A DNA stretch of 64,000 bases, from NCBI GenBank assembly GCA_946187645.1, contig CAMHRP010000020.1:1780-65779 (forward strand), in the 5' to 3' direction. The number at the start of each line of letters is the position of its first letter. The stretch's first letter is position 1. The DNA comes from an uncultured Bacteroidales bacterium (GTDB taxonomy: Bacteria; Bacteroidota; Bacteroidia; Bacteroidales; F082). The notes below the pieces were generated by a model. It worked only from the letters and a program-made list of their open reading frames with translations, was not told where the DNA came from and did no database searches. A program made the translations under genes and the position numbers. This document shows positions 37,497-56,317 of the stretch, piece by piece.

Positions 37497-37504
37497 CAAA
37501 GATA
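37497..37504 (-). promoter_or_regulatory. -7 box (TATCTTTG on the minus strand) for ATPase paralog 1
   Basis: Reverse complement of CAAAGATA, 23 nt upstream of the ATG at 37473. Confidence 0.5.
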
Positions 37505-37521
37505 TGGATTTTCTTTTTGCG

Positions 37522-37586
37522 TTCACCCGTTTGGCTAAAATTCATTCACCTGTTTGGCCAAAAATCATTCACCCATTTGGCCAAAT
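37522..37586. repeat. three tandem 23-bp repeats, each carrying a TTTGGCCAAA-type palindrome
   Basis: TTCACCCGTTTGGCTAAAA / TTCACCTGTTTGGCCAAAA / TTCACCCATTTGGCCAAAT at 37522, 37545 and 37568, just upstream of the ATPase promoter. Confidence 0.8.
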
Positions 37587-37910: not shown

Positions 37911-37935
37911 CAGCGTGACAGTAATAAGACAATCC

Positions 37936-38532: not shown

Positions 38533-38995
38533 ACCCGGCACTGTCACATACGGATTTGCCAAAAACATAAACAATCCCAAATACAAATACGCCATCAGCA
38601 TATTTAGGGATGAAGATGTGCAGGTTGTCATTCATTTCACGACCAGCCAAAGACGTGCAGGTGTCCCCGACAATCAGATAAAACACGGCATCAACCGTGA
38701 CGCAGACGGCCAAGTGGTGTCGTATGTGTTTGAACCCGAAGTAGAGATTGGTGACATTCCAACGGGCGGTCGTTTTTGCTTTCCTGTCCGCACGGTCATG
38801 CAGTTCGACTATGGCTTTCTACGCGGCGATGACTGGAGCTTGCAGCAACAGTTTGACGATTTGGAAGTCAAATGTCATTTGGACAGAGAAGAGTACCTTA
38901 ATCTGGTCTACGCCATGTATTGCAGCAAGCGCACACCGACCGAATACAAGCCTTACTTGGAGAAGGTGCTTGAAGAGGCGTATGGTTCTAAATAG
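38525..38995 (+). CDS. hypothetical protein, candidate cognate toxin of the Panacea antitoxin
   Basis: 156 aa. The start overlaps the upstream stop by 8 nt (ATGTTTGA). No motif I recognise. Confidence 0.6.
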   Translation: MFEPGTVTYGFAKNINNPKYKYAISIFRDEDVQVVIHFTTSQRRAGVPDNQIKHGINRDADGQVVSYVFEPEVEIGDIPTGGRFCFPVRTVMQFDYGFLRGDDWSLQQQFDDLEVKCHLDREEYLNLVYAMYCSKRTPTEYKPYLEKVLEEAYGSK

Positions 38996-39262: not shown

Positions 39263-40612
39263 TCAAAGCAGAGGCGTCATATATAAAGGAAGATACACGA
39301 TGCCTTCTTGCACTTTCAGGTCTGATGTGTGAAGCACATAGGGTGTTGCAACCTGTTTCGAGAATTTGTTGATGAACTTTTCTAACGAGGTGGTTACATA
39401 ACGGTTGGTTGATTTAACTTCTATCGGACAGATATTGTGCCGGTTGGTGAGGTCGGGTTTGGGAATGAGGAAATCGATTTCCATGCGGTTTTCAGCCGAC
39501 TTACGGTCCGAGTTGGAGTAGAAATACAGTTTGTGACCCGAAACGCGCAGCATTTGCGCCACCAAATTCTCAACCAACATTCCCTTATTGATCTCCAATT
39601 TATTGAGAATAAGCTTTCTATATAGCTGGTCTCTGGCGAGTATTCTCTCGTCGAAAGCGTGGGAAACCAGCAGTCCTGTGTCGCCGAAATAGCATTTGAA
39701 GGTGGTACGTTTGCGGTTGAGTCTCAATCCAATGTCGGGTGCTGTGGTATTGTAGCACAGGTTGACTACGCAAGCATCGTTAAGCCAAAAGAAAGCATCT
39801 TCATAATCCCTCATCCGAGCGCCTTTTTGCAGGGATGCCAGCTTGAATTTCTTCTCGTGTTGCTGCAATTGTGCAGGTATTTCGTCAAATATGCTCGTCA
39901 CTTTCGACTCGGCTTTGGTGGCATACTTGCTGATGTCGTTGCGATAAAGCTGAAGGATGCCACGCTTGGTTTCGTCAACAATGTCAAAATCCCTTGTCTC
40001 CACAAATGCCTCCACGGCTTGGGGCATTCCGCCCACTATCATGTATTGGCGGAGATAGTCTAACGTCTTGCGGTGCAAGCTGCCCATGGGTTCAAGGCGG
40101 TCGAATTGCCGACGTATGAAATCCATAGTCATATCATCGCCCAAAGCCCACAGAAACTCCTCAAAATCCATGGGAAACATCTCAATCCGTTGTTCCTCGG
40201 AGGGAATCACGATGTCGATCACGTTTTTCTTGATAGAAACTAGCGACCCGGTTTCGATGAAGTCGTAGCGTCCGTCTTTCACCAAGTATTTGATGGCGGC
40301 TCTCGCTTTAGGGTATTGCTGAACCTCATCGAAAATGATTAGCGATTCGCGCGGGTAGAGCCTAACTCCAAAGTATAAGGAAAGACGCAGGAAAAACTCG
40401 TCACGGTTTGGAAGGTAATGTTCGAAGACATTCAGCAGTTCCTCGTCCATGTCGTTAAAATCCACAAGGATATAGGACTTGTATTCGTTTTTTCCGAACG
40501 CATCCACAATATAGCTCTTGCCGATGCGCCTTGCGCCTTCAATCAACAATGCAGTCTTTCCTTGTTTTTCGTTTTTCCATCGCAGTAGCTCCTGGTAGAT
40601 TTTTCTTTTCAT
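39263..40612 (-). CDS. AAA+ ATPase with C-terminal DUF4143, paralog 2
   Basis: LLIEGARRIGKSY Walker A, IIFDEVQ Walker B, C-terminal EIDFLI...ICPIEVKS motif. Confidence 0.8.
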   Translation of the reverse strand: MKRKIYQELLRWKNEKQGKTALLIEGARRIGKSYIVDAFGKNEYKSYILVDFNDMDEELLNVFEHYLPNRDEFFLRLSLYFGVRLYPRESLIIFDEVQQYPKARAAIKYLVKDGRYDFIETGSLVSIKKNVIDIVIPSEEQRIEMFPMDFEEFLWALGDDMTMDFIRRQFDRLEPMGSLHRKTLDYLRQYMIVGGMPQAVEAFVETRDFDIVDETKRGILQLYRNDISKYATKAESKVTSIFDEIPAQLQQHEKKFKLASLQKGARMRDYEDAFFWLNDACVVNLCYNTTAPDIGLRLNRKRTTFKCYFGDTGLLVSHAFDERILARDQLYRKLILNKLEINKGMLVENLVAQMLRVSGHKLYFYSNSDRKSAENRMEIDFLIPKPDLTNRHNICPIEVKSTNRYVTTSLEKFINKFSKQVATPYVLHTSDLKVQEGIVYLPLYMTPLL

Positions 40613-40628
40613 GACAATCAGCGTTTTG

Positions 40629-40715
40629 CACCTTTTCAAGAGATAAACAAACCTATTTTATACACCTTTTCAAGAGATAAACGAGGTTGATCCTACACCT
40701 TTTCAAGGGATAATC
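40629..40715. repeat. three direct 20-nt repeats (CACCTTTTCAAGRGATAAHC) spaced 33-34 bp apart
   Basis: Copies at 40629, 40663 and 40696, immediately upstream of the ATPase paralog 2 start (40612). Confidence 0.8.
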
Positions 40716-41340: not shown

Positions 41341-42801
41341 TCAATTATGGTCACCTATCACTTCCCAATGTCCATTCTTGCGGCCACCAATACGCTTCAA
41401 CACCCTATATTGCTGCAATCGACCAATGTTGTACTTAACACCATCCTCGGTAATGCCGTCGATAGCCTCAGCCACTTCCTGTCGGGTTGCTGTCGGATGT
41501 TCTTGCAGGTATTTTAAGATTTCCTTTTGGGTAGTTGTCAAAGGCTTTTGGGTAGTAATTTCGCTCTTTTGGGTAGTGGATTCATCCTTTTGGGTAGCGG
41601 AAATCAGCTCTTCATTGGCCTTTTGGGTAGTGGTTTCGTCCTTTTGGGTAGTCCTCCAAATGCGAGCAATGAACTGATTGCCGTCGGGACGGTCTATCAG
41701 TTCCACGTCACAATTCTCAGCCATCACTCGCGGAATGCCCGAGCCAAGTCCCCTGTAGGGCATCGTCTTGGATCCAAATTGTGCCAGTTGGGGATTGCGT
41801 GGGTCTGAATTGCCGAGCAGGATTTCATCTATGGTTTGTCCGTCTGGCAAACAACCAGGATTCACAATCTCAACCCTGTTGTCAAAGACAAGCAACCTAA
41901 TGGCTGCTGGCTTTAGAAGGTCCAGATGCACCAATGCGTTCTGGACAAGTTCTTGCAATACCACCTCTGAAATCTCCAAATCTCCTTCGCTGTTGAATGA
42001 CTGGCCATTTTGCGGACGGCTCAAACAAGACTTCAACCATCGCATTGCGTCCTCATACATCTCAGGGATGGTTCCCGTAATGTCGCGACTGTCACGATAA
42101 TGTGTGCCACCGATGTGATTCCCCACAAACCATACCGCTTTGATGCAATGTTGGGGACGAAACATCTGAGGCTCCTTGGCAAAATACATCAGTCCTGCAA
42201 TGGTAAGCCGTCCAAGTTCATCTGTGATGTGTGCATTCTTCAGAATCGTTGGGACTGGGATATTGAACTCGTCAACCCTCTTTCCGAAAACCTTGTTGAA
42301 GTATTCGTCAAGAGCCTTTGTGTCAATGTCAGCCTCGCTACTACCGTCAACACCTTCCTCGTCTGCCTGGTATTGATGTGACTTCTGGAAAAGCCTGCGA
42401 ATCTCGGCGTTTTCCGTAACACGACGTTTGTCGGCGCCTTGCTTTACCCAGATATTACCTGACAAATCTTTGTATGGCTTGTAATCACCACTCTTCACGT
42501 AGGCCACCAGATAGGCCTGTCCATCATGTTTCAGTGTTTCAGTTTCAATATAGATGGTCGGCCTCACATGGTCATTGGCAGTATTGCCCAATTCGCGTGA
42601 AGTATATTGCAGCTGTTCGTAAGTGAGTCCCACCATTCTGCCTGTCTTATCCTCGGCACCAAACACAATGGTGCCTCCGTGTGTGTTGGCAAAAGCCACC
42701 AACTCTTCTGCAATCTGTTTTGGAGTGGTGAATTCCAACTTAAACTGCACAGTGGTGTTTTCACCCAAACTGCATAATTCAACAAGTTCTTGCTCTGTCA
42801 T
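41341..42801 (-). CDS. AlbA_2 (Schlafen-like) plus HATPase_c_4 plus C-terminal wHTH protein (the type often annotated RecG-like ATP-binding protein)
   Basis: N-terminal ENTTVQFKLEF...ELVAFANTHGGTIVFG, central ELVQNALVH...NPG, a TTQK repeat linker, and C-terminal ILKYLQEHPTATRQEVA. Confidence 0.75.
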   Translation of the reverse strand: MTEQELVELCSLGENTTVQFKLEFTTPKQIAEELVAFANTHGGTIVFGAEDKTGRMVGLTYEQLQYTSRELGNTANDHVRPTIYIETETLKHDGQAYLVAYVKSGDYKPYKDLSGNIWVKQGADKRRVTENAEIRRLFQKSHQYQADEEGVDGSSEADIDTKALDEYFNKVFGKRVDEFNIPVPTILKNAHITDELGRLTIAGLMYFAKEPQMFRPQHCIKAVWFVGNHIGGTHYRDSRDITGTIPEMYEDAMRWLKSCLSRPQNGQSFNSEGDLEISEVVLQELVQNALVHLDLLKPAAIRLLVFDNRVEIVNPGCLPDGQTIDEILLGNSDPRNPQLAQFGSKTMPYRGLGSGIPRVMAENCDVELIDRPDGNQFIARIWRTTQKDETTTQKANEELISATQKDESTTQKSEITTQKPLTTTQKEILKYLQEHPTATRQEVAEAIDGITEDGVKYNIGRLQQYRVLKRIGGRKNGHWEVIGDHN

Positions 42802-43310: not shown

Positions 43311-43598
43311 TTAATTGTGGTGCAAAGAAAAAAGACAAAAACGTATAGGGTCTCGTTTATATCAAAAGTTGGGATTCTCAATAAAAAACGAAGCCCCCCC
43401 TGGTGCGCTGAACTAATGGGAAGCGAGGGAGGTCATATTAAATGCAAAAATATACATAAAACCACACAAACAACCATAAATGACATTTTTTTGTCATTTT
43501 TCGCCATCAAATTTCACTATTTGAAATGTTTCCCCATCTATCCCATGCCCCTCCGCATGTGATTTTTTATCCTTTTCCATTTTTATTCATATTTTCCC

Positions 43599-43606
43599 TA
43601 TCTTTG
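43599..43606 (+). promoter_or_regulatory. -7 box (TATCTTTG) about 270 nt upstream of the SNF2 gene
   Basis: This is the only TAnnTTTG box I found between 43320 and 43875. It is followed by the inverted repeat CTTGTCTT...AAGACAAG. Confidence 0.4.
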
Positions 43607-43874
43607 CCTTGTCTTTCGCAAATGCAAAAGCGCAAGACAAGACATATTGGCAAAATAGATAGTAGTATCTAATTCCAAGAAGTTCAACACATACAATCTT
43701 CCAACAAATGCTACGGACTTCGAGGAGTGGGGATACGCCTTTAGGCGTACCCTTTCCTTATTCGTTCCGTGGCAGGGTTTTCCGGAAGATTGTCCCAGTG
43801 TTGAAGCGATCAAGGTTAAGGGTGCGCTTCTTTTATGCCGATAAGTCATCGAGATACAATGAACAATCTTCCGA

Positions 43875-46800
43875 ATGATGATTCAAGTCGGCAACATAAT
43901 TCAAAACCTGATTCCTTCCGAATCTGTTATCGTTACCAAGGTGCAGCCCTTGGGCAGTCACTTTTCCATCAGCTACAAAGGCGTGAACACCAACAAGGCC
44001 AGCAGCGTCATCATCGATGCCGCCAAGCTGGAAACGCTGGAGGTCGTTGCCGACGAAGGCAAGTTCAACTTCAAGGGCAACCCTGAGAAGTTCAAACTCT
44101 TCGCCGAGGCCGAGCGCATCAAGACGGCATACCAGTTCGACCCGCTCTTTGCCATCAACTGCAGCGTGGTCGACCCGCTACCGCATCAGGTGGAGGCCGT
44201 CTATAAGTTCCTATTGCCGCAGCCGAGAATCCGTTTCCTCTTGGCCGACGACACTGGTGCTGGTAAGACCATCATGACAGGTCTGCTCATCAAGGAAATG
44301 CTCATGCGCAAGATGGTCGAGCGCATTCTCATTGTCACGCCCGGTGGCCTCACCAAGCAATGGCAGGAGGATGAAATGGGCGTGAAGTTCAATCTGCCCT
44401 TCACCTTGGTCAATAGCCAAGTCTTCAATTCCGACCCCACCATCTTCCAAACCCACGACCGTTTGGTGGCTTCCATAGACCTCATTTGTCGCGACAAATA
44501 CATGAAGGTGCTCGAAAACACCAACTGGGACTTGGTCATCTTCGATGAGGCACACAAGCTATCGGCTTACGAATACGGTCTGAAGACCTATCGGTCGCGA
44601 AGATACGAGGCCGCTTTCATGCTCTCGCAACGATGCGAGCATGTCCTTCTTCTAACCGCTACGCCCCACCGTGGCCGCCAAGACACATTCAAGCGTCTGC
44701 TCCAGCTGTTGGATGAAGACATCTTCGCTACTGCCGACATCGCTGCCGACCGCGTCAAGGAACTCAGCCAAGACGGCCTGAACAAGTTCTTCATCCGTCG
44801 TCTGAAAGAGGACATGAAAGACTGGGAGGGCAACCCACTCTATGTGAAGCGTTCCACCAGAACGGTTTCCTACCAGCTGACACCCGAGGAAAAGAAACTC
44901 TACGATGCGGTTACCAAGTACCTCACCAAGCGCAAAGAAGAAGCCATCTCCACCAAAAACATCCATGTCACCCTTGCCCTCGCTGTCATGCAGCGTCGTT
45001 TGGTCAGCTCCATCTATGCCATCAAGAACACCTTGCAGCGCCGTTGGACGGCTTTGCAAGAGCTGGTCGATGAGCTTGACCGCAACCCAGCCCTTTGGTC
45101 TCAGAAGGAAAAGTTGGAAGAGCTTGTGGACTACGATAATGTGGATGACTACGAAGACCTTGATGACGACGAGAAGGATGCCTTGGATGCCATCCTTTGC
45201 GACCCCAAGAAACTGAAATGGTTCACCACGGCTTCAAGCCCCAAGGAGTTGAAGCATGAGGCACAGGAGGTGAAGACACTCTATGAGATGGCCAACAACC
45301 TCTATATGCAGAATCAAGAGGAAAAGAAATATCAGGAGTTGAAGCATCTGCTGAAGAGCCAAGGCGTTGTTGACGGCGAAAAGCTGGTGCTTTTCACTGA
45401 ACACAAGGACACCCTGCTTTATCTTCAAGACCGCCTGAAAAACAACGGCTACAAAGTCACCACCATCCACGGTGGCATGTCGGTTGATGAGCGTCGCGAG
45501 TCTCAAGTCAAGTTTATGACCGACCAGGCGCAAATCCTCATCGCTACCGATGCCGCTGGTGAGGGTATCAACCTGCAGTTCTGCCGACTGCTCATCAACT
45601 GGGACATCCCGTGGAACCCCAACCGACTGGAGCAGCGCATGGGGCGTGTCCACCGTTATGGCCAAAAACGCGATGTCCTCGTCTTCAATATGGTTGCCGA
45701 CAACACCCGCGAAGGTCAGGTGCTGGCCAAGTTGTTACAGAAACTTGACAACATCCGCGAGGACTTGGGCGACGACCGCGTCTATGATGTCATTCAAGAT
45801 GTGCTGAAAGGCATTTCCCTCGAAGACATCATCTCCTCGGTCTTCAATGGCCAGCCCACTCAGTTTGATGCTTTCATCGACCAGGACAAAGACCAAATCC
45901 GCGACCTCTTCAAGAAGAAAATCGAGGAAAACACCAAGTCGATGGCCATCAGCAAGGTCGATTTCAAGGATGCCCAACTGCTGAAGGAAGACTCCGATGA
46001 AAAACGGCTCCAGCCTATCTACATCCGCCTCTTCTTCGAAAAGGCGTTCCGTTATCTTGGTGGCGAGTATGAGCAAGTCAAAGAGGGCATCTATCGCATC
46101 AACAAGGTGCCTGCCGTGATTTCCGACCGCCTCCGCGACAACTACAAGATTTACTCCGACAATGTCACGAAGCTGCTTTTCTGCTTCGACAAGCATATCT
46201 TCCTCGACTATAGCAACGCCAGTTCCCTCATGGGCAAGGCGCACTACATCAACCCGGGCAATCCGCTTTTCGATTGCTTGGTCGATACCGTTCGCGACCT
46301 CTATCGAGACGAGATGATGAAGGGCACCGTCTTGGTTTCGCCCGACGATAGGGATGCCTATCTGGCCTTCTATGTCAAGAACCAAATCACCGACAACCGT
46401 CCTTCCAAGGAAGGCGACAATGTGGCCAACGAGAATCTGGCTTTGGTGTGTAAGGATTCGGATGGCAACTTCTCCGTCACCTCTCCCGCCAAACTGATCG
46501 ACCTCGACATCCCGACGCAATACGCCAAGGAAATCACACCGCCCGAAGTGGAGGACGAGCAGGATGTCATGGCTTGGTCGTTTGAGAAGATTGCCATGCC
46601 GCTCTTCGAGAGCACCAAGCAGAAGGTGGAGGAAGACAACGAAGCCCGTCGCCAGTATCTCGAAGAAGCCTTCAATCGGGTGATTGAAGACTTGGACGGT
46701 GAAATCAACGAGCTTCAAGGCAAGACCTTGATGAACGACAACGAAAAGCTTCAGGAGAAGCTGCAACGCAAATATGCCCTGCGGTATCAGGCAGAGCAAA

Positions 46801-47309
46801 AGCGACAGGAAAGGCTTCACAGCCTCGAAAAGATGGTGGAGTTGCAACAGCGCACCCCCGAGGTACTAGGCTGCGCCTATGTCGTGCCGCTCAACCAAAT
46901 GGAATACAAAAGCCATTTCGGCATGAGCCGAGACGACGAGGTGGAAGCCATCGCCATGAACGAAGCCATGAAATACGAAAAGCAAGAAGGACGCATCCCC
47001 ACCGATGTCTCAAAGGACAATGTGGGCTACGACATCCGCAGCACTGCAACCGATGGGCAGAAACGCTACATCGAAGTGAAAGGCCGTGCCGCCACCGATG
47101 GCGTGATGCTCTCCGAAAACGAGTGGAACCGCCTCACCCAATTGGGCAAGCGCGCTTGGCTCTACATCGTCACCGACTGCAAAACCCATCCCACCCTACA
47201 TATCATCAACGACCCAGGCAACACCCTCGATTTCGAAAAGACCGTCAAGGGCGTTCAGTATTACCTCCCGCTCGAAGAGTGGAAAGCACATGAAAATCTA
47301 AACCAATGA
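43875..47309 (+). CDS. SNF2-family helicase with C-terminal DUF3883 (restriction-endonuclease-like) domain
   Basis: LLADDTGAGKT, VIFDEAHKL, LLTATP, ATDAAGEGINLQ, QRMGRVHRYGQ. C-terminal GYDIRS..RYIEVKGRA..LSENEW..WLYIVTDC. Confidence 0.9.
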   Translation: MMIQVGNIIQNLIPSESVIVTKVQPLGSHFSISYKGVNTNKASSVIIDAAKLETLEVVADEGKFNFKGNPEKFKLFAEAERIKTAYQFDPLFAINCSVVDPLPHQVEAVYKFLLPQPRIRFLLADDTGAGKTIMTGLLIKEMLMRKMVERILIVTPGGLTKQWQEDEMGVKFNLPFTLVNSQVFNSDPTIFQTHDRLVASIDLICRDKYMKVLENTNWDLVIFDEAHKLSAYEYGLKTYRSRRYEAAFMLSQRCEHVLLLTATPHRGRQDTFKRLLQLLDEDIFATADIAADRVKELSQDGLNKFFIRRLKEDMKDWEGNPLYVKRSTRTVSYQLTPEEKKLYDAVTKYLTKRKEEAISTKNIHVTLALAVMQRRLVSSIYAIKNTLQRRWTALQELVDELDRNPALWSQKEKLEELVDYDNVDDYEDLDDDEKDALDAILCDPKKLKWFTTASSPKELKHEAQEVKTLYEMANNLYMQNQEEKKYQELKHLLKSQGVVDGEKLVLFTEHKDTLLYLQDRLKNNGYKVTTIHGGMSVDERRESQVKFMTDQAQILIATDAAGEGINLQFCRLLINWDIPWNPNRLEQRMGRVHRYGQKRDVLVFNMVADNTREGQVLAKLLQKLDNIREDLGDDRVYDVIQDVLKGISLEDIISSVFNGQPTQFDAFIDQDKDQIRDLFKKKIEENTKSMAISKVDFKDAQLLKEDSDEKRLQPIYIRLFFEKAFRYLGGEYEQVKEGIYRINKVPAVISDRLRDNYKIYSDNVTKLLFCFDKHIFLDYSNASSLMGKAHYINPGNPLFDCLVDTVRDLYRDEMMKGTVLVSPDDRDAYLAFYVKNQITDNRPSKEGDNVANENLALVCKDSDGNFSVTSPAKLIDLDIPTQYAKEITPPEVEDEQDVMAWSFEKIAMPLFESTKQKVEEDNEARRQYLEEAFNRVIEDLDGEINELQGKTLMNDNEKLQEKLQRKYALRYQAEQKRQERLHSLEKMVELQQRTPEVLGCAYVVPLNQMEYKSHFGMSRDDEVEAIAMNEAMKYEKQEGRIPTDVSKDNVGYDIRSTATDGQKRYIEVKGRAATDGVMLSENEWNRLTQLGKRAWLYIVTDCKTHPTLHIINDPGNTLDFEKTVKGVQYYLPLEEWKAHENLNQ

Positions 47310-50300
47310 AAGCAAAGAAACTCATAGAAGTGGCCATGCCGATTAAGGAGATTTCGGCAGAGAGCGTCCGCGACAAGTCGATTCGTCACGGTCATATTTC
47401 AACCCTGCACCTGTGGTGGGCGCGTCGTCCCTTGCCCGTGTGTCGTGCCGTGGTGTTCGCCAGCCTTGTGCCCGACCCCTTGGATGAGCACTGCCCGCAA
47501 GCCTTCAAAGACGCTGTGGCCGACTTGCTCAAAAGCGATACCTACAAACCCTACGACGACATCCCCTATACTACGGTCGTTGACAAGATGGACGACACCC
47601 CTCGTCACCGTCTGATGATGTTCATCGGCAAGTTCTCCGACAAATGCCAGAAGAACATGAATGCCGGAAAAGCCACTTCACCTGCCGAACAGCTTTCTGC
47701 TGGTTCTCTTATCAAGTGGGAGAACAAGAACAACGAGGCGGTGCTGGGCATTGCCCGTAAGTTGATTTGGGTGGCTTACAACGCCGACAAAGACGCTTCG
47801 CTTTCGTATGAGCGGTTGAGCAAGGACTTCGACCATGCCTATTCAGCCATCCATGAGGCCGAAAAAGCCCTTTATGAGTTGACCGACCGTCACAAGGCAA
47901 CACCCGAAGTGCAGCAGGCCGAAGCCCGTTTGCAAAAAGCCATTGATGATTTCCAGCAGCGTATGCCCAGCGTATTCGACCCCTTCGCGGGTGGAGGTGC
48001 CATCCCACTCGAAGCCGCCCGTTTGGGCTGCCGCAGCTATGGCAACGACATCAATCCTGTGGCGCACATCATCGAGCGTGGTTCTGCCGAATTCCCTCAA
48101 AAGTACGGCAAGCCTATTCGTTATACCGAAACCGAGTTTCGCCGCATCTATGGCAAAGAAGGCGTAGATATGTTGGCCGAAAAAGGCTTTGCCTTCTTCG
48201 ATGGCTTTGTTGAGATTCCCAACCGTCTGGCTTGGGATGTGGAGTTCTATGCCAAACGCATCCTTCGCGAAACTGAAAAGGAAGTGGGGTGGATGTATCC
48301 AGCGGACGAAAATGGGAATAAGCCTATTGCATTTTATTGGGTGAGAACAGCTAAATGCTCAAATCCTAGTTGTGGGGCTATTGTTCCAATGTTAAAAGGC
48401 TTTGATTTAGTGCATACTAACTCTAAACAGTTTTATTTAGATCCGACAATTGAAGGCAAGAGCATTAGTTTTTCAATTAAACAAGGAAGAAGTTCATCAT
48501 CAAGTTGGAATAATCGTGGAAATGTTACATGTCCTTGTTGTGGAAGCCTTACGAGTGTGGGCCAAGTAAAAGAACAATCCAAAAAGAATCGACTTTCACC
48601 AATTCTAGTTGCTACTATCTACGAAACAAATAATGGGAAAAAGTATGGAATACCTACAGCAAAGCAAATCAAAGTGCTTTCAACCCCCATTGAAGTTATA
48701 GATAGGCCAACGGAAAGTATGCAACGAAATTCAAATGGTGGTGATACCTTTCCTTGGGGATTTACAAAATGGGGCGATTTGTTTTCAGATAGGCAATTAT
48801 TCATGCTCTCTCATTTTGTCAACCAAATTAAAGGAATTGGACGATTATTGGATGATGAAAAATATGGGAATATCATCGAGACCTATTTAGCTCTTTGGTT
48901 TGATAGAATTGCTTTAATTAACACTTCATTTAGTAGGTATGATACAAGTAGAGAAAATGTACAACATATGTACAATCGTCAAGCTATTGCCATGGTTTCA
49001 GATTATCCTGAATCTAATCCTTTTTGCGACAGTTCAGGCTGTGCTCTAAATCAGTTGGATTGGGTATTAAGATATATAGAATCTGAAAGCCCTAATTCAT
49101 ATAGTGCCAACTTTGCTAATGCTTCTAGTGGAGATAAAGAACAATTCGAAAAGAAACAACTATCAGTTGTGGTTACTGACCCTCCTTATTATGATGCCAT
49201 TGCTTACGGCGATATATCAGATTTTTTCTATATCTGGATGAAAAAGATTTTGTGCGAAATATATCCACTGAATTTTGCAACCCCACTTACCCCAAAGACT
49301 GAAGAATGTACTGCGTTAAGACACCATCATAATGACAATGAAACTGAAGCGAAAAAACACTTTGAAAACAAATTGACTGACATTTTCGATGCAATTGAGA
49401 GACAAACTTCTGATGTGGTAAGTATTATGTTTGCTCATCAAAGCACAGAGGCGTGGACTACACTTTGCAATTCCATCTTGAATGCTAGGATGAATATTAC
49501 AGGTAGTTGGCCAATGGATACCGAATTGGCCAATAGAACTTTAGCTATATCAAGTTCCGCTTTGGAGTCCTCCGTCACCGTTTCTTGTCGTCCATCCCAG
49601 CGTCAAGGCTTTGCAGAATACAAGGAGGTGAAGAAAGCCATCGAAAAGAATGTGAAGGAAGAAGTGAACAAACTCTACGACTTAGGCTTCCGTGATGCCG
49701 ACTTGCTCACAGCTTGCTTCGGTCAGGCCGTTAGTGAGTTTGGCAAATACGAGGTGGTCGAAAAGAGCAACGGCGACCTTGTGTCAGTAGCTGAATTGCT
49801 CGAACTAGCTCGAGAAGCAGCCTTTAATGCCTTGCTCGAAGGAGTCGAAGGTGACAATTTTACCAAGTTCTATATTGGATGGCTTCGATTAAATGGTATG
49901 AAAGAAACTGACTACGATGATGTCACCAAGTTCACCCGCGTCGGCCTGCCTATCGATGTCAAGGAAGTCTTCAGCCAAGGTCTGCTGGTCAAGGAGCCGA
50001 GTGGCAACAAACAACATCTGGCCACTGCCGCCGAGCACCTCGAAGGCGACCACATTGCTGGCACCCGTGCCACCGATTTGCTCATCGACCAAGCCCACCG
50101 AGCTATCTTGATTTATAAGGACGGAAACCGTGCCGCCCTGCTGAAACTGCTACGCGACATCAACGCCCAAGATGCCAACGCTTCCTTCTGGAGGCTCTTG
50201 GCTTCCTTGAAAGAGCTGTTGCCCGCCTGCGATGACTTAAAGCAAGTCCAAGGCTTGCTACAAAACGGCGAAGACCTCCGTCAATCCAGCCGTCAGACCG

Positions 50301-50338
50301 AACAACCCACATCTACCCAAACAACAATCGAGTTCTAA
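47306..50338 (+). CDS. DUF1156-domain DNA methyltransferase with Zn ribbon (COG1743 type)
   Basis: N-terminal IRHGHISTLHLWWARRPL, SAM motif FDPFAGGGAIPLEA (47975-), CSNPSC...CPCCGS, motif IV VVTDPPYYD (DPPY at 49178-49189). The start overlaps the helicase stop (ATGA). Confidence 0.9.
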   Translation: MKAKKLIEVAMPIKEISAESVRDKSIRHGHISTLHLWWARRPLPVCRAVVFASLVPDPLDEHCPQAFKDAVADLLKSDTYKPYDDIPYTTVVDKMDDTPRHRLMMFIGKFSDKCQKNMNAGKATSPAEQLSAGSLIKWENKNNEAVLGIARKLIWVAYNADKDASLSYERLSKDFDHAYSAIHEAEKALYELTDRHKATPEVQQAEARLQKAIDDFQQRMPSVFDPFAGGGAIPLEAARLGCRSYGNDINPVAHIIERGSAEFPQKYGKPIRYTETEFRRIYGKEGVDMLAEKGFAFFDGFVEIPNRLAWDVEFYAKRILRETEKEVGWMYPADENGNKPIAFYWVRTAKCSNPSCGAIVPMLKGFDLVHTNSKQFYLDPTIEGKSISFSIKQGRSSSSSWNNRGNVTCPCCGSLTSVGQVKEQSKKNRLSPILVATIYETNNGKKYGIPTAKQIKVLSTPIEVIDRPTESMQRNSNGGDTFPWGFTKWGDLFSDRQLFMLSHFVNQIKGIGRLLDDEKYGNIIETYLALWFDRIALINTSFSRYDTSRENVQHMYNRQAIAMVSDYPESNPFCDSSGCALNQLDWVLRYIESESPNSYSANFANASSGDKEQFEKKQLSVVVTDPPYYDAIAYGDISDFFYIWMKKILCEIYPLNFATPLTPKTEECTALRHHHNDNETEAKKHFENKLTDIFDAIERQTSDVVSIMFAHQSTEAWTTLCNSILNARMNITGSWPMDTELANRTLAISSSALESSVTVSCRPSQRQGFAEYKEVKKAIEKNVKEEVNKLYDLGFRDADLLTACFGQAVSEFGKYEVVEKSNGDLVSVAELLELAREAAFNALLEGVEGDNFTKFYIGWLRLNGMKETDYDDVTKFTRVGLPIDVKEVFSQGLLVKEPSGNKQHLATAAEHLEGDHIAGTRATDLLIDQAHRAILIYKDGNRAALLKLLRDINAQDANASFWRLLASLKELLPACDDLKQVQGLLQNGEDLRQSSRQTEQPTSTQTTIEF

Positions 50339-50410
50339 CCCCCAGCGTCCCGCGTCCCTTTGTCCCGCGTCCCGCATCCAAAATAACGAACAACAAAATA
50401 CCATCGAGAT

Positions 50411-53400
50411 ATGAATGAGAATGTATTCAAAGCTTTAGGCGTTTTCCTCGAGACTATGCGTCCTTATGTGGTCAGCATCTTGCAGAAGTATTTTCCCAAC
50501 GAGCCATGGGAAGGCGTGATGTTTGCCAAGCTCAGCGCCGATAAGCAGGCTTCATGGAACCGTAATGCAAAAGAAATGCAAAAGACCGGGGCACCAAGCA
50601 TGGGTCTCATCGACTTTAGCAACCTCACTTCTTTTGCTTTCAGCTTCAAGGAGTTGCTGGTAAAGGAATTTGGCGAATCCAAGCAGGCCAACAAGTTCAT
50701 CAGCTATGTGCAAGAGCTTGAAGACACCCGCAACAAGTGCCAGCACTACCAGTCTATTGATGAGGACGAAATTGTCCGCACCTATAGCAACATCAAGATG
50801 GTGGCGCGTCTCATTGGCGATGATGACCTCTACGACGAGGTGACCCGCATTTCCGCTCCCAAGGCCAAGCCCGTGGAGCAGCCATCCGTCAAGACTATTG
50901 AGGTGCGTCCTGAATCCATTATAGATGACAATAGCCAAGTGACGCCGTGGTTTGCCAATGTCATTCCCCACTACGACATCAGCCGTTCCATTCTCGATGA
51001 GTCCATCTTTGCCGCCAACCTCGGTGATGTGGCTATGGGTACAGCTCCCGAGGTCTATACCAACTCGGCATCCTTCTTTGAAAAAACCTATGTCACTCAC
51101 GGTCTGCGCGACATCGCCACCCGTGTGGTCACCGCCTTGAATGGTGGAGTGACCGAAAACCGCGTCATCTCCCTGAAGACAGGTTTTGGCGGTGGTAAGA
51201 CCCATACCCTCATCACGCTTTACCATATCGTCAAATGCGGCTCCAAAATGGCTACGATGGAGTCGTGCCGCGACTTACTCAAAGAAGGCTTGGTGCCTGA
51301 GTTCGACAACGCCAAGGTCGCTGTCTTCACCAACAACACCACCGATGTGGCGCAAGGTCGCCAAACCGACGACGGCCTTACCATCAACACCATCTGGGGC
51401 GAAATTGCCTATCAACTGGGAGGCGTTGAGGCCTACAAGGTGGTGGAAGAAAACGACCGAGAACGCATTGCTCCTTCGAGTGGCGTCTTCCAGCCCATCC
51501 TCGAAACCACCAAGCCAGCCATGATTCTCATTGATGAGCTGGCCGACTATTGCGTCAAGGCTTCAGCCAAAAAAGTGGGCGCAGGCAACCTCTATTCCCA
51601 GACGCTCAGTTTCGTGCAAACGCTCACCGAGATGGTCTCTTCCGTGTCCAGATGCCTTCTCATTGTCACCTTGCCCGAAAGCGTCGTAGAAGTCGCTTCT
51701 ACCGCCATCGGCCAGGACATTCTCACTTCGCTGGAACAGCGCGTGATTCGTGTTGGCTCTGCCATCAAACCCATCGAGGACGAAGAAGTGTTTGAGGTGG
51801 TGCGCCGCCGTTTGTTCGACGAGATTAAGGACTATACTGTGGTTGACGATGTGGCGCGTCGCTACCAGCGCATGTACCACAACCGTTACAACGACCTTCC
51901 GGCGCAGAGCGACAACAATGCCTACGCCGACAAGATTCGCAAGTCTTATCCCTTCCATCCCGAGTTGATTGAGATGTTCCGCTTGCGTTGGGGCAGCGAC
52001 CCCCATTTCCAACGCACCCGTGGCGTGTTGCGCCTCTTGGCCTCAATAGTTCAAGATTTGTGGCGTCGCCGCCAAAATCTGACTGGAACCCAATCCTTGA
52101 TACATACCAGCGACATCAATCTTGAAAACTTGCCCACACTCACAGGCACCATCACCAACCTGATGGGAAGCCAGTGGGAAACCGTCATGCACGCCGATGT
52201 CTATGGCTCTGCCAGCAATGCCTTTAAGATTGATTCCAACGAAATGGGTTCCAACACTGGCCTTTACAGCCTGACGCAAGGCATTGCAAATACCATCCTT
52301 TTGGCATCCATCGGTACTTTTGCCAAAAATGGTGTCACAATCAAAGAGCTGAAACTCTGTATGTTGAAACCCAACGCCTTCAACCATAACGACATTGATG
52401 GGGCTTTGAACAAGTACGAACAAGTGGCTCATTATCTCCACTATTCTACTATCGGCGAGAAGCGATATTGGTTCCACTCCAAGCCCAACATCAATATCAT
52501 CTTGAATCAGGCCAAGAACGAAATTAACGACGATGAAAAACGCACCGAAATCGTCAGGCGTTTGAAGAACAGTTGCTCCTTCATCCCCGACCTGAATGTG
52601 TTGATAGCACCTACAGGCGACATCCCCGAGCAGAAGTCGCTCACCTTGGTTTTGATGGGACCAGAATACGCAGTTCCGATTGACAGGCTGAATGCTCCCG
52701 TCGAAAGCTATGTGAAAACCAATTCGCTGAAGCGTGGCGAGGCCGACCGCCTCTATCGAAACACAATGTTTTATCTGGTCTGCTCCGAGCAAGGCAAGTC
52801 CAACCTTGACGGCAAAATGCGCGACTACTTGGGCTGTGTCAAGGTGCAGAATGTCTATTCTGCTTCCATCGAGAAAGACCAGAGGGATGAAATCCAAAAG
52901 CGTAAGGATGCTTTCGACAAGGAAGCCTTCGATGCATTGGTTCAAGCCTACGCCGTAGTGTTACGCTACACCTTCGACAAGGGCATCCTCCGTTACGATG
53001 TGAAAAACTATGCCTCCGATTTCTCGTCACAGGTCATGCAAAACATCCTTCCCGAGCTGAAAGAGGAAGAGTGGCTGCTCGATGCTGTGGGTCGTGGTGT
53101 CTTGGCCAACAACAACCTACTGCCAACGGGTGAGAATCCCATCCGTGTCAAGGACTTCTATGAAGCCTTCTTAAAGTTCGACGACAAGCCGATGATTACT
53201 GGCTCCGAAGCCATCATCCAAACCATCAACCGCTATTGTTCCGAGGGTTTGTTCAATGTGGCATCGGGCGAAAAAGGCAATTACGACAAGGTGTATAGCA
53301 AAGAAAGAGTCCCGTTCCTCAATGTCACCGACCCCGATTATTGGTTGGTCGACAAGAGCATAACCAAGGAAGAGCCAGCTCCAACACAACCTACTGAACC

Positions 53401-53695
53401 CGACCCAACACCCAATCCAACACCTCCGACAGGAACTGGCGGCGAACCCGAGCCAACACCTGGCGGCACGAAGCACTACAAGAAAATCAAAATCAGTGGT
53501 AGTGTCCCCAAGGAGCAATGGACGCAACTGTGGACAAGCTTCCTCGTCCCCTTGAAGGACAACGGCCTGCACATCACCGTCGAGTTCGAAGCTCAGACCA
53601 CATCCAAAAACCCCTTGGACGAAAACTCCCATGTCATCAAATGCGTCAAGGAGTCTGCCGCACAACTTGGACTGGATTTTAAGGCAGAAGAATAA
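50411..53695 (+). CDS. DUF499-type AAA ATPase (COG1483) with N-terminal HEPN-like module
   Basis: TRNKCQHY (R107-x4-H112, nt 50729-50746) in a helical N-terminal ~140 aa. Walker A GFGGGKTHT, Walker B MILIDELADY, P/T-rich linker and a small C-terminal domain. Confidence 0.85.
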   Translation: MNENVFKALGVFLETMRPYVVSILQKYFPNEPWEGVMFAKLSADKQASWNRNAKEMQKTGAPSMGLIDFSNLTSFAFSFKELLVKEFGESKQANKFISYVQELEDTRNKCQHYQSIDEDEIVRTYSNIKMVARLIGDDDLYDEVTRISAPKAKPVEQPSVKTIEVRPESIIDDNSQVTPWFANVIPHYDISRSILDESIFAANLGDVAMGTAPEVYTNSASFFEKTYVTHGLRDIATRVVTALNGGVTENRVISLKTGFGGGKTHTLITLYHIVKCGSKMATMESCRDLLKEGLVPEFDNAKVAVFTNNTTDVAQGRQTDDGLTINTIWGEIAYQLGGVEAYKVVEENDRERIAPSSGVFQPILETTKPAMILIDELADYCVKASAKKVGAGNLYSQTLSFVQTLTEMVSSVSRCLLIVTLPESVVEVASTAIGQDILTSLEQRVIRVGSAIKPIEDEEVFEVVRRRLFDEIKDYTVVDDVARRYQRMYHNRYNDLPAQSDNNAYADKIRKSYPFHPELIEMFRLRWGSDPHFQRTRGVLRLLASIVQDLWRRRQNLTGTQSLIHTSDINLENLPTLTGTITNLMGSQWETVMHADVYGSASNAFKIDSNEMGSNTGLYSLTQGIANTILLASIGTFAKNGVTIKELKLCMLKPNAFNHNDIDGALNKYEQVAHYLHYSTIGEKRYWFHSKPNINIILNQAKNEINDDEKRTEIVRRLKNSCSFIPDLNVLIAPTGDIPEQKSLTLVLMGPEYAVPIDRLNAPVESYVKTNSLKRGEADRLYRNTMFYLVCSEQGKSNLDGKMRDYLGCVKVQNVYSASIEKDQRDEIQKRKDAFDKEAFDALVQAYAVVLRYTFDKGILRYDVKNYASDFSSQVMQNILPELKEEEWLLDAVGRGVLANNNLLPTGENPIRVKDFYEAFLKFDDKPMITGSEAIIQTINRYCSEGLFNVASGEKGNYDKVYSKERVPFLNVTDPDYWLVDKSITKEEPAPTQPTEPDPTPNPTPPTGTGGEPEPTPGGTKHYKKIKISGSVPKEQWTQLWTSFLVPLKDNGLHITVEFEAQTTSKNPLDENSHVIKCVKESAAQLGLDFKAEE

Positions 53696-54010: not shown

Positions 54011-54018
54011 TATATTTG
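54011..54018 (+). promoter_or_regulatory. -7 box (TATATTTG) dedicated to the low-GC two-gene cassette
   Basis: TAnnTTTG 50 nt before the ATG at 54069. Confidence 0.5.
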
Positions 54019-54068
54019 CAATCTCAAAAGTGGTCCATAATAGTATTGTTTTTAATAAATGTATAAAG

Positions 54069-55241
54069 ATGAAATTAAATAATTTATTAATTTTACACGA
54101 CAAGAGAACTAATTGTATTTCTGTCTCTGCTACAACGGGAATTAAAGAGTATATTGCATGGTTTGAGGAATATGGCAAACAGAATAAGTTAGATGAACAA
54201 AGAACAGTGCTGAATACACGTTCTGGAAATATGATTCGTCATCGGTTAATTGAAGATCTAAAACAAGGTGCGCTTATACCACCATTGGTTATCGGTCTGG
54301 CTTTAAATGAGATGCCAAAATTGGAAAATGATGCTGATGTGAATGATGTTTTTGAAGCGAACAAAAGTGAAGCAACTGTTATTGACGGTATGCAACGCTC
54401 AGAGGCTTTGTCACAGGCTCTTCGTGAAAACTCGCAAATTGCTGATAGCACATTAAGGATAGATTTATGGATTGCTAAAGATACGGTTAGTCTAATTTAT
54501 AGGATGCTTGTCTTGAATACAGGACAAGTTCCATGGGACGTTAAAAGGCAAATGGAGGTAATTTACAAGCCTCTCGTTTCAGAGATAAGAAATAACGTGC
54601 CCAATATTAAGATTATCGTAAAAAACGATAATGAACGACGTACTGGACCTGGTGAATACCAAGCATCAAATATGATAGAATTGTTCATCGCTTTTACGAG
54701 TCGCAAAGAGATTGTATCACCTACTGAGCGTATAGCGGATGATTTTATTCGTTTGGATGTGGCAGATATGGCGGGGCAACCTGGAGTGTCGGAATTATTT
54801 TATAGAACTATCAGAATGATGGTCCAATTAGATTCTGCTTTTTCGAAATACCAAGGCACTGCTCAGTATGAAGAATCAGATCTCTTCAAAACAGGGAAAG
54901 ATATTTTCTCAAAGGTTACGGCACAGGTGGGTTTTGTTGTTGCTGTGGCGCAAAAAGTGATAGGAATGCCGGGAATGAATGAAAGAGACCAAGAGTTTCA
55001 AAACAGAACTATCATAGAGGTGGAAAAAAAAATCGAGCGGATCTGCGATAAAGTTTCAAAACTATCAGACGAAAAACTTGCTACATTTATGGCTTTTGAC
55101 TATTTGAATGAGCAAATCAGGAAATTGCCAACAAAAAAAATCGGCAATGCTCAAAGAGAATTTTTCAAGGCTGCTTTCAGAGCACTAATAGATACAACAA
55201 ATGATGTTGATAATTTATCATTTGCCTGGTTGGCATATTAA
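54069..55241 (+). CDS. ParB/Srx-fold protein of the DndB/DGQHR/DUF262 type
   Basis: QRTVLNTRSGNMIRHRLIEDLKQGALIPPLVIGLAL, ATVIDGMQRSEAL (DGMQR at 54384-54398), YRMLVLNTGQVPW, then a long helical C-terminal half. Low GC. Confidence 0.6.
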   Translation: MKLNNLLILHDKRTNCISVSATTGIKEYIAWFEEYGKQNKLDEQRTVLNTRSGNMIRHRLIEDLKQGALIPPLVIGLALNEMPKLENDADVNDVFEANKSEATVIDGMQRSEALSQALRENSQIADSTLRIDLWIAKDTVSLIYRMLVLNTGQVPWDVKRQMEVIYKPLVSEIRNNVPNIKIIVKNDNERRTGPGEYQASNMIELFIAFTSRKEIVSPTERIADDFIRLDVADMAGQPGVSELFYRTIRMMVQLDSAFSKYQGTAQYEESDLFKTGKDIFSKVTAQVGFVVAVAQKVIGMPGMNERDQEFQNRTIIEVEKKIERICDKVSKLSDEKLATFMAFDYLNEQIRKLPTKKIGNAQREFFKAAFRALIDTTNDVDNLSFAWLAY

Positions 55242-55246
55242 ACAAA

Positions 55247-56317
55247 ATGAGTAGAAGCGTGAACAAATCTCTAAAGCCTATTGTTGAATATCTAGCTAAC
55301 CGTATTCCTGAAATAACGGATACGAATAATTTCCAGATTTTTCTTAATGAAATCGAGTATGATCGAATAGAAAATAATAAAACAAGAAAACTGGCATCGT
55401 TTCGTCCAGACCCTAATAGATGCACGGCATTATATATTTGCGATGACAATTATTATTTTATTGAGTCAGGTTTTCCTGAATTATCAGATACTCCTGATTA
55501 CATCGGTGTAGATAATGAACAAGTGCTAGATTTGTATTATTTATATATCGCTGAGAATAAAATAGAAGCAAAAGAAGAATTAGATTCCGCATATATTTAT
55601 GATAGGGTCTTTAATGGAGATCCTATTCAGTATGAAACGTTGAGAGAGATATATCCATTGATTAGCATATATAAGGTATCTTGTGACGTAGATGTTCGTG
55701 CCATTACAAACGAACAAGCAAATAGCATACTTAAGAAGCTTACCCTAAAATATATTTGTCTTACATATCAGGTTCAATCCACAGATATTGTTAAACTATC
55801 AAAACAAACAATTGTTCTATTTTCTCAGATTTCTGACCAAAAGGATGACAACATCCCGATAGATAATGTGCTTCGGAGCATTTTGGCTTATCAATGGCAA
55901 TTTGTATTTTTGGATTTATATCGTTGTATAGAAAGACTTTCAGTGATCGGATGGGTCCATGATTATTCTCAATATTTCCAAACAGGTTTGTCGAAAGAGG
56001 AAATGTTTAATAGAATAAAAAAACGTGAAATGAAATATAATGAGGGCGAGATTTTGGATCATTTATTCACTCTATTAGATAACGACACGAAAATGTCTTT
56101 AGCAAGTATTACAAAAAAAAATGCGGCTTCTTTTATCTATAGTCAACGTAATGGAATAGTTCATTATCAAAAAACAGATATTAATCATAGTGATACTGAA
56201 TGGAATACTATAATTGTGTTTTTGCTTAATGCCATAATACAACTGTATAACAACTTGTCTGATGATATAAATGATTTAGGCGATATAGAATACTCAAGAA
56301 ATAAAACAGTGATGTAA
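55247..56317 (+). CDS. hypothetical protein with C-terminal HEPN-like R-x4-H motif
   Basis: 356 aa, 5 nt after the upstream stop. IYSQRNGIVHYQK (R301..H306, nt 56147-56164) is flanked by predicted helices (WQFVFLDLYRCIERL, EWNTIIVFLLNAIIQLY). The N-terminal 200 aa are unrecognisable to me. Confidence 0.6.
   Translation: MSRSVNKSLKPIVEYLANRIPEITDTNNFQIFLNEIEYDRIENNKTRKLASFRPDPNRCTALYICDDNYYFIESGFPELSDTPDYIGVDNEQVLDLYYLYIAENKIEAKEELDSAYIYDRVFNGDPIQYETLREIYPLISIYKVSCDVDVRAITNEQANSILKKLTLKYICLTYQVQSTDIVKLSKQTIVLFSQISDQKDDNIPIDNVLRSILAYQWQFVFLDLYRCIERLSVIGWVHDYSQYFQTGLSKEEMFNRIKKREMKYNEGEILDHLFTLLDNDTKMSLASITKKNAASFIYSQRNGIVHYQKTDINHSDTEWNTIIVFLLNAIIQLYNNLSDDINDLGDIEYSRNKTVM

Follow-up and report, generated by a model that had tools for sequence, protein, structure and literature searches.

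A compact Hma operon of an uncultured Bacteroidales bacterium, preceded by a structured leader that also occurs upstream of other modification-based defence operons

The stretch of DNA analysed here, called the window throughout, comprises 64,000 nucleotides (64 kb) of contig CAMHRP010000020.1 from an uncultured Bacteroidales bacterium, and it carries a three-gene operon that was identified as a member of the Hma (Helicase, Methylase, ATPase) family of defence systems. The open reading frames (ORFs) of the operon, the domains and variable segment within them, and the elements that precede them were located as follows, in window coordinates unless residues are given.
43560-43875: leader region in front of the operon
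43599..43606, + strand: -7 box of the form TAnnTTTG, TATCTTTG, matching the Bacteroidetes-type consensus and forming the start of a conserved module
about 43608-43641, + strand: P1, a small covarying hairpin upstream of the long hairpin
43657..43831, + strand: long imperfect hairpin of 175 nt with its apex, GGGGATACGCC-loop-GGCGTACCC, at 43729-43753
43863..43872, + strand: second copy of the 5'-arm sequence ACAATCTTCC, just 5' of the hmaA start; the first copy lies at 43693-43702
43875..47309, + strand: hmaA, 1144 aa, Swi2/Snf2 translocase of superfamily 2 (SF2) with a C-terminal NOV_C/DUF3883 PD-(D/E)XK nuclease
47306..50338, + strand: hmaB, 1010 aa, DUF1156 amino-methyltransferase having a centrally placed target recognition domain (TRD), a Cys4 ribbon and a C-terminal domain
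48200..49400, + strand: variable low-GC cassette within hmaB, aa ~300-700, spanning the zinc ribbon, the TRD and the motif IV region
50411..53695, + strand: hmaC, 1094 aa, Swt1-like HEPN domain joined to a BrxC-like DUF499 AAA+ ATPase
HmaC aa 1-148: HEPN domain
HmaC aa 152-171: disordered linker, followed by an ORC/Cdc6-type AAA+ region with winged-helix and alpha+beta parts
HmaC aa 987-1019: Pro/Thr-rich linker

The stop codon of hmaA overlaps the start codon of hmaB by 4 nt (ATGA, 47306-47309), and a spacer of 72 nt (50339-50410) separates hmaB from hmaC. These coordinates and the sequence agree with an earlier sequence-only reading of the stretch, which had described three large ORFs running in one direction (1144, 1010 and 1094 aa) with the same overlap and spacer. 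The PADLOC rule for Hma calls for one HmaA, one HmaB and one HmaC encoded on a common strand, no more than three genes embedded among them and no pseudogene; here all three ORFs were intact, present in a single copy each and encoded on the + strand, which is the arrangement described by that rule. HmaA matched the PADLOC profile PDLC00659 with an E-value of 4.8e-208 (residues 3-1114, aligned to positions 7-1146 of the 1176 in the profile), HmaB matched PDLC00661 and PDLC00660 (E 8e-131 and 6.5e-130), and HmaC matched PDLC00662 (E 1.6e-139); the HmaA profile was covered almost end to end, and the HmaB and HmaC profiles over most of their length. The locus is a compact, typical Hma system, that is, a HEPN-fused Type-1 DUF499-centred BREX-related (BR) system. 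The observations made on the locus itself are confined to the family membership of the three proteins, their intact catalytic motifs and the organisation of the operon.

The gene neighbourhood of Hma was first described in 2013, as noted in PMC12839542, and the family was defined in 2021 by Payne et al., who found it 1,638 times across 26 phyla (PMC8565338). A preprint of 2024 put the number of distinct Hma systems at 1,485, and in 62.7% of them further defence genes lie embedded among the hma genes. In 2026 the family was reclassified as Type-1 DUF499-centred BREX-related, with a restriction-modification-like (R-M-like) model; Type-1 BR systems were found in 2446 taxa, with a HEPN fusion in 1370 and a helicase-REase fusion in 79%, and about 44% of the systems lack HEPN (PMC12839542). 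The sequence-only reading had taken the system to be uncharacterised and unnamed, and had offered its mapping to a named system as a reason to give that claim up; the PADLOC models that the proteins match are those of HmaA, HmaB and HmaC, and Hma was named in 2021 (PMC8565338), so the claim is out of date. Its R-M-like interpretation of the three genes was judged to be correct. The following features of the Type-1 BR class (PMC12839542) were found here: a BrxC-like ORC/Cdc6 AAA+ core, a HEPN domain at the N-terminus of the ATPase, a Snf2 helicase with a C-terminal PD-(D/E)XK nuclease, and a DUF1156 methyltransferase with its TRD inserted in the core, with no DUF3780 gene. The absence of a DUF3780-type gene, which had also been reported from the letters, held up: the operon has no room for one, and no match was found among ORFs of at least 150 aa within about 8 kb. 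The locus resembles Hma/Type-1 BR systems in all three family hidden Markov models, gene order, strand, domain make-up, a predicted small C-terminal alpha/beta domain and the lack of DUF3780; it differs from the 62.7% of Hma systems that have embedded genes in having none, and nothing essential differs.

Homologues of HmaC numbered 2455 at E <= 1e-10, the best being 96% identical and encoded by a Bacteroidales metagenome-assembled genome (MAG), and most of the 120 best contained both HEPN_Swt1 and DUF499 by Pfam. An exact-protein look-up of HmaC returned no identical entry, the nearest public protein being the one at 96% identity. Related loci were present in uncultured Bacteroidales MAGs and in one Saprospiraceae MAG, all with the identical three-gene order, which was kept over 41-96% HmaC identity; among the numbered related loci, the compact hmaA-hmaB-hmaC order was seen in L002, L003, L004 and L032-L034. 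Compared with the L002 and L003 copies, HmaA was 94% identical to both, HmaC was 89% and 62% identical, and HmaB was 74% and 60% identical, respectively. Homology between Hma loci ended exactly at the hmaC stop codon. With more than 2400 taxa already on record for the family, and with public MAGs already encoding proteins 96% identical, the locus is one further typical member.

HmaA matched the Pfam families SNF2-rel_dom, Helicase_C and NOV_C (PF13020, formerly DUF3883), the last with an E-value of 1.2e-20 over residues 1023-1111. Its helicase motifs lie at 125-132 (DDTGAGKT), 224-227 (DEAH) and 587-597 (motif VI), and its C-terminal motifs at 1051-1056 (GYDIRS), 1066-1072 (IEVKGRA) and 1095-1099 (WLYIV). 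Every motif that the sequence-only reading quoted for the three proteins was present at the position read, and Pfam backs all of its domain calls. The nuclease residues D1053, E1067 and K1069 are conserved in relatives, and helicase motifs I, II and VI together with the nuclease D...E-x-K are conserved down to 53-60% identity. By sequence, the nearest solved relative of HmaA in the Protein Data Bank (PDB) is RapA, a protein with N-terminal Tudor-like domains, and the alignment runs from residue ~85 onward. Helicases of the Type-1 class are described as also having a TUDOR domain at the N-terminus and an inactive REase domain internally (PMC12839542), for which the kinship with RapA is at most an indirect hint. 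Among the PADLOC models for other systems, HmaA matched BrxHI/BrxHII strongly (E 1e-99 to 1e-112) and DrmD with an E-value of 4e-130. The first hmaA ATG (43875) is not conserved in close relatives and the second (43878) is; the true start of hmaA is therefore probably 43878.

HmaB matched the Pfam family DUF1156 (E 5.6e-23) and, weakly, amino-methyltransferase families. Its motifs are HLWWARRP (35-42), FDPFAGGGA (224-232), a Cys4 set at 351/356 and 409/411-412, and DPPY (625-628), such that the central TRD is flanked by motif I (F227AGGG, 227-231) upstream and motif IV (D625PPY) downstream. Relatives retain motifs I and IV, as well as all four cysteines of the zinc ribbon, down to 53-60% identity. 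The PADLOC model for PglXI matched HmaB weakly (E 6e-9), and the sole PDB match by sequence was a tRNA m2,2G methyltransferase, at a marginal E-value of 0.0026.

HmaC matched HEPN_Swt1 (E 5.9e-10, residues 7-136) and DUF499 (E 7.5e-41) in Pfam, and carries RNKCQH (107-112), GFGGGKTHT (258-266) and LIDELADY (373-380). In 120 full-length homologues, R107, N108 and H112 of the HEPN domain and D375/E376 of Walker B were invariant, as was the Walker A sequence GFGGGKTH apart from one substitution at G261. An AlphaFold2 model of HmaC built from 61 input sequences had a mean predicted local distance difference test (pLDDT) score of 81.4, with residues 1-148 all-helical; the C-terminal part, where Type-1 ATPases carry an RRM/ferredoxin-like domain (PMC12839542), was modelled as a small alpha/beta domain at a local pLDDT of only 51-75. 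The best PDB fold match of this model was BrxC of Acinetobacter BREX, in its N-terminal region (9zll; E 1.4e-6, probability 1.00, target template modelling (TM) score 0.50), and this match of the predicted fold to BrxC supports a relationship of HmaC to BREX. A PDB sequence search returned no solved relative of HmaC, and by sequence the copy of the database searched yielded neither an Hma nor a MANTIS chain.

Three related families were considered as the identity of the locus. MANTIS/Gao_RL was rejected, as the equivalog models NF042964, NF042963 and NF042962 scored 161.5, 177.5 and 200.8 bits against cut-offs of 1100, 1000 and 1200, no DUF3780 was present and the nuclease is not of the PLD type. 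BREX was rejected, as no PglZ, BrxA, BrxB or BrxL was found in the three proteins or in the ORFs scanned at about 36-60 kb. DISARM was rejected, as the DrmD model NF038317 scored 390.7 bits against a cut-off of 610 and no DUF1998 protein was found among the neighbouring ORFs scanned. Because these equivalogs fell below their cut-offs and DUF3780, PglZ and DUF1998 were absent, the locus was assigned to Type-1 BR/Hma rather than to MANTIS, BREX or DISARM.

MANTIS (Gao_RL, Gao_29; MtsA-D) is a Type-2 BR system that was dissected in a September 2026 preprint: its DUF499 AAA+ ATPase, MtsA, loads the monomeric DUF1156 methyltransferase MtsC onto DNA, methylation occurs at asymmetric 6-bp sites and on one strand only, and ATP hydrolysis permits turnover (10.64898/2026.09.23.753747). 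MtsC, for which a DNA-bound structure is available, methylates DNA at N6 of adenine, and a partial swap of its TRD changes both modification and restriction specificity; the effector is a helicase-nuclease that works best between inverted unmodified sites, and MtsD is conserved beside a hypervariable MtsC TRD (10.64898/2026.09.23.753747). The sequence-only reading had stated that no target motif or mechanism was known, which stands for the complete Type-1 unit and no longer for this sister Type-2 system, for which motifs, hemimethylation, structures and a restriction model are available. The present locus shares with MANTIS a homologous DUF499 ATPase and DUF1156 methyltransferase, an SF2 helicase-nuclease as the effector and a hypervariable TRD beside a conserved effector, and the motifs of MtsC (F241AGGG, D621PPY) and HmaB (F227AGGG, D625PPY) have identical order and almost equal spacing. 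Unlike MANTIS, which has an MtsB (DUF3780) gene and an HKD/PLD effector, the locus has no MtsB, a NOV_C PD-(D/E)XK domain at the C-terminus of the helicase and a HEPN domain on HmaC. With Type-3 BREX (BrxC, PglXI, BrxHII) it shares the BrxC-like ATPase fold and the strong BrxHI/BrxHII and weak PglXI matches; it differs in lacking PglZ, BrxA and BrxB, in the DUF1156 N-terminus of its methyltransferase and in a helicase with what appears to be an active-type nuclease, and its ATPase is predicted to end in a small alpha/beta domain whereas the BREX ATPase ends in a coiled coil (PMC12839542). DISARM DrmD, Type III and Type ISP systems likewise couple a Snf2-type motor to methylation-based self-marking, and in Type III the methyltransferase also supplies specificity; DISARM differs in having DrmA, DrmB (DUF1998) and DrmC, none of which occurs here, and the Type III and ISP enzymes lack the separate AAA+ loader ATPase that is present here.

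The most variable part of the operon is a cassette within hmaB. Its GC content is 0.35-0.41, compared with 0.50-0.56 across most other parts of the operon, and its product is 30-68% identical to L002 HmaB while the flanks are mostly 82-96% identical. Over HmaB aa 351-550 identity falls to 30-59% while the HmaA proteins of L002 and L003 stay at 94%. The closest public match to the cassette was 93% identical, and the next ones about 62%. This pattern looks like that expected for an exchangeable specificity segment, and the hypervariability of the HmaB TRD beside a 94%-conserved effector, HmaA, supports specificity being set by the methyltransferase. As a separate observation, in L005 and L006, 1719-13388 (66% HmaA identity), hmaB is split into a DUF1156 ORF of 321 aa and an ORF of 687 aa; the break, at about aa 321, coincides with the start of the variable cassette in the window, and hmaA and hmaB enclose an AIPR (abortive infection) gene. 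Split or truncated forms of HmaB seem to be common, judging by the many entries in the databases that measure 630-700 aa.

Upstream of the operon, homology among close Hma loci began abruptly about 315 nt before hmaA. The conserved part is a promoter-plus-leader module of about 270 nt (window about 43599-43850) that opens with the -7 box; the box was conserved as TATCTTTG, TATTTTTG, TAATTTTG or TACCTTTG in 12 related loci, and further upstream of it the sequences were unrelated between loci. From the known Bacteroides consensus, the TAnnTTTG box would act as the promoter. A sigma-70 promoter and terminator scan was uninformative, with counts equal to the shuffled expectation, and Bacteroidetes promoters lie outside the model of that scan. 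The long hairpin has an invariant apex, GGGGAUACGCC-loop-GGCGUACCC, and a minimum free energy of -92.6 kcal/mol, compared with -62.1 +/- 4.65 for shuffled sequences (z = -6.56). In 11 distinct copies, 99.5% of 604 cells of the alignment were in standard pairs, compared with 36-51% when the partners were slid; compensatory double changes affected 8 pairs and 23 cells in the 11 copies, compared with 7.3 +/- 1.9 cells in shuffles (0 of 500 reaching the observed number) and 0-1 in the slid controls. Covariance model scores were 182-205 bits for the sense strand, compared with 23-33 bits for the antisense, and the sense strand carries several invariant G-U pairs; because of these scores and pairs, the structure was assigned to the transcript of the operon strand.

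A U-run comes after the hairpin, and the second copy of ACAATCTTCC might replace the first in pairing with the 3' arm, GGAAGATTGT (43784-43793). This repeat was found in 8 of 11 close leader copies and was absent from L020, L029, L027 and the diverged L010. Both attenuation and translational control can be envisaged, given the U-run after the hairpin and an arm repeat near the start codon in most copies; any regulatory role for the repeat and its alternate pairing is speculation. A coding explanation for the leader was rejected, since both candidate small ORFs are disrupted by indels of 1-2 nt that distinguish close copies, and neither has a family match. The leader had no match in Rfam 15 at gathering or permissive thresholds, in a plasmid collection, in a phage collection or in viral contigs, and no further copy within the 64-kb window. 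It was not found upstream of the more distant Hma loci L004, L005 and L032-L034, and it is therefore not intrinsic to Hma. A keyword literature search on Bacteroides R-M leader RNA returned no description of it, and the structured leader may be the one item at the locus that is new.

In metagenome contigs from related Bacteroidales, close copies of the leader (82-99% identity) stand immediately upstream of mutually unrelated operons. The copies were recovered by scanning metagenome contigs with the apex pattern, so that the search was seeded on the leader itself and the breadth of the downstream genes is not an unbiased sample; the sample is small, about 13 loci, and all copies apart from L010 are closely related. 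Located copies, with the genes behind them, were as follows.
L002:2556-2730: close leader copy in front of a compact Hma operon
L003:3265-3440: close leader copy in front of hmaA
L020:8179-8352: leader copy in front of Type III mod/res
L029:6166-6338: leader copy in front of Type III mod/res, assigned by similarity to the L020 mod gene
L018:9817-9993, - strand: leader copy in front of Type III mod/res, assigned in the same way
L026:2782-2958, - strand: leader copy in front of Type III mod/res, assigned in the same way
L016:1-148: leader copy in front of Type IIG or methyltransferase-specificity genes
L027:6485-6658, - strand: leader copy in front of genes of the same kind
L023:2900-3073, - strand: leader copy in front of genes of the same kind
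L010:1001-1187: diverged leader with identical apex and compensatory arm changes, in front of sspB-sspC-sspD-pbeA (Ssp phosphorothioation)

In addition, hmaA lay behind the leader in L021, L022, L024 and L025. All operons seen behind the leader encode defence systems in which self DNA is marked by modification, and the conserved unit is probably a lineage-specific promoter-plus-leader module that regulates such operons. A more specific proposal, which we put forward tentatively and hold at somewhat less than an even chance, is that the leader is a shared cis-regulatory RNA, such as an attenuator or a protein- or RNA-binding switch, by which the lineage controls or safely establishes newly acquired modification-based restriction systems. 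If so, one RNA governing several unrelated modification-based defences in gut Bacteroidales would be a new regulatory layer; further such systems might also be sought with the leader as a sequence tag. Elsewhere Hma is regulated differently: the distant compact Hma operon of L034 is preceded by genes for HTH_3 and WYL/WCX regulators (2166-3457), where the present locus has the lineage-specific structured leader, showing that Hma regulation differs between lineages. In the same contig, that operon is followed by YjiT_N and YjiV_N/MZB helicase genes (13399-22711). The Type III Mod proteins encoded by the first ORF behind the leader (L020:8394-10325, L026, L018, L029) have a nearly identical N-terminal region of about 190 aa and fall into two classes in the catalytic/central region, IYIDPPYYF... 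and IYIDPPYNTGDD..., which suggests modular exchange in these leader-linked Mod genes too.

How the operon might work was considered from homology to the sister system MANTIS and from experiments on HmaA. HmaA of Halomonas meridiana alone protects E. coli against T4 about 100-fold, and this protection requires helicase motif VI and the D/E/K residues of NOV_C, a quadruple nuclease mutant having lost all protection (PMC11232893, 2024). The isolated NOV_C domain nicks supercoiled DNA with Mn2+ and leaves linear lambda DNA uncut, and the authors of that study describe a non-canonical abortive-infection phenotype (PMC11232893). With these phage-challenge, mutant and nuclease data, the statement in the sequence-only reading that no phage-challenge data exist is likewise overtaken. 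On this basis we favour, with moderate confidence, an R-M-like anti-phage operon that is directed by HmaB and HmaC, with HmaA as the effector and HEPN as a back-up. The AAA+ ATPase HmaC would load HmaB, acting as a monomeric N6-adenine methyltransferase, at a short asymmetric site set by the HmaB TRD, and HmaB would methylate one strand of host sites, leaving self DNA hemimethylated and thereby marked. Where HmaB and HmaC sit on unmodified sites of incoming DNA, these sites would recruit or license HmaA, whose Snf2 motor would move along the DNA while its C-terminal PD-(D/E)XK (NOV_C) domain nicks or cuts. As a probable second effector, of the abortive-infection type, the HEPN RNase at the HmaC N-terminus would be freed when the ATPase senses an infection that escapes restriction. 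The operon would be transcribed from its own promoter through the long structured 5' leader, which probably controls its expression.

Several points weigh against this model. Experiments on Type-1 systems so far come from one study, in which HmaA alone was sufficient against T4, T4 grown in HmaB-over-expressing cells was restricted as before, and about 15-20% of hmaA genes were without hmaB or hmaC within 10 genes (PMC11232893). Methylation in MANTIS needs MtsB (DUF3780), which has no counterpart here, and the MANTIS effector is of the PLD type, not PD-(D/E)XK, with its cleavage not shown in vitro (10.64898/2026.09.23.753747). Furthermore, the sequence search of the PDB ties HmaB, weakly, to a tRNA methyltransferase, and the role given to HEPN is pure inference. 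The HmaB test leaves room for an R-M-like model, because T4 DNA is hypermodified and HmaC was absent.

The same observations on Halomonas HmaA are the basis of the best-surviving alternative, in which HmaA is a self-sufficient sensor-effector of the Nhi/Hna type that responds to a feature of phage replication or DNA structure and nicks DNA, while HmaB and HmaC, instead of being an obligatory module for modification and targeting, would be accessory, modulating HmaA or broadening its action, or would make up a layer of their own. It would account for the protection of about 100-fold by HmaA alone, the failure of HmaB over-expression to let T4 escape, the hmaA homologues (~15-20%) without hmaB or hmaC within 10 genes and the non-canonical abortive-infection phenotype (PMC11232893). 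We consider it unlikely for the present locus, though a serious contender: the three genes are tightly linked and translationally coupled through the 4-nt overlap, with their order kept over 41-96% HmaC identity, and an expressed nuclease-translocase would be hard to maintain without self-protection. The hypervariable TRD beside a conserved effector corresponds to methyltransferase-directed specificity, as was shown experimentally in the homologous MANTIS, and the modified DNA of T4 makes the HmaB test uninformative.

BREX-like exclusion without cleavage is improbable. There, HmaB and HmaC would mark and read DNA, HmaA would be mainly a remodeller that blocks phage replication, and the nuclease would be dispensable or a signalling nickase. 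The BrxC-like fold of HmaC, the weak PglXI match of HmaB and the classification of the family as BREX-related all fit such a scheme, as does the finding that isolated NOV_C only nicks supercoiled DNA and leaves linear lambda DNA uncut (PMC11232893); however, no PglZ, BrxA, BrxB or BrxL is encoded in the operon or in the neighbouring ORFs scanned, and the quadruple nuclease mutant of HmaA was wholly unprotective (PMC11232893), with the D/E/K residues conserved here. An RNA-acting system, with HmaB as a tRNA-type RNA methyltransferase, the HEPN RNase as the main effector and HmaA as a RapA-like RNA-DNA or RNA-polymerase-associated motor, would fit the sole PDB sequence match of HmaB (E 0.0026), RapA as the nearest solved relative of HmaA and the invariant HEPN active site, but is highly improbable, given that the homologous MtsC methylates DNA, at N6 of adenine, with its 6-bp sites mapped and a structure of it bound to DNA at hand (10.64898/2026.09.23.753747), that HmaB has DPPY, the central TRD and the motif spacing in common with MtsC, and that HEPN cannot be the core effector when about 44% of Type-1 systems lack it.

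As a clean, compact Type-1 operon without embedded genes, the locus could be of practical use as a test case for Type-1 BR/Hma questions. Those that could be approached with it are the motif of HmaB, methylation through HmaC without an MtsB-like cofactor, the dependence of restriction on the orientation of unmodified sites, seen in MANTIS, and the trigger of HEPN.

Two repeats were noted within the operon region. The 10-mer CATCGAGATA occurs exactly twice in the window, at 43847-43856 and 50402-50411; the first is 19 nt 5' of the hmaA ATG, the second directly adjoins that of hmaC, and the copies are partly conserved in relatives. The spacer between hmaB and hmaC contains, at 50347-50375, two copies of the direct repeat GTCCCGCGTCCC, which are kept in L001, with the first copy altered in L002.

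The operon lies in a chromosomal defence island between housekeeping genes, with pyrB, pyrI and lemA at 33.8-36.0 kb on one side and rpoC at 60.1-64.0 kb on the other. Further upstream is a gene for a C10 peptidase sorted by the type IX secretion system (T9SS), which fits Bacteroidota. The neighbouring genes of the island were as follows.
36199-37545 and 39263-40639, - strand, upstream: AAA_14/DUF4143 ATPases (PADLOC candidate PDC-S01)
37915-38532: SocA/Panacea antitoxin-like gene, its 3' end overlapped by an unannotated 156-aa ORF at 38525-38995
41341-42801, - strand, upstream: protein with Schlafen AlbA_2, HATPase_c_4 and winged helix-turn-helix (wHTH) domains
54030-56317, + strand, directly after hmaC: low-GC (0.31-0.40) two-gene unit

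The second gene of this downstream pair, an ORF of 356 aa, had no match in Pfam, PADLOC or NCBIfam. The first encodes a DzbA-like (Dazbog) protein (PADLOC E 5e-59) with a weak GmrSD_N match, and a TAnnTTTG box at about 54013-54020 suggests that the pair has its own promoter.

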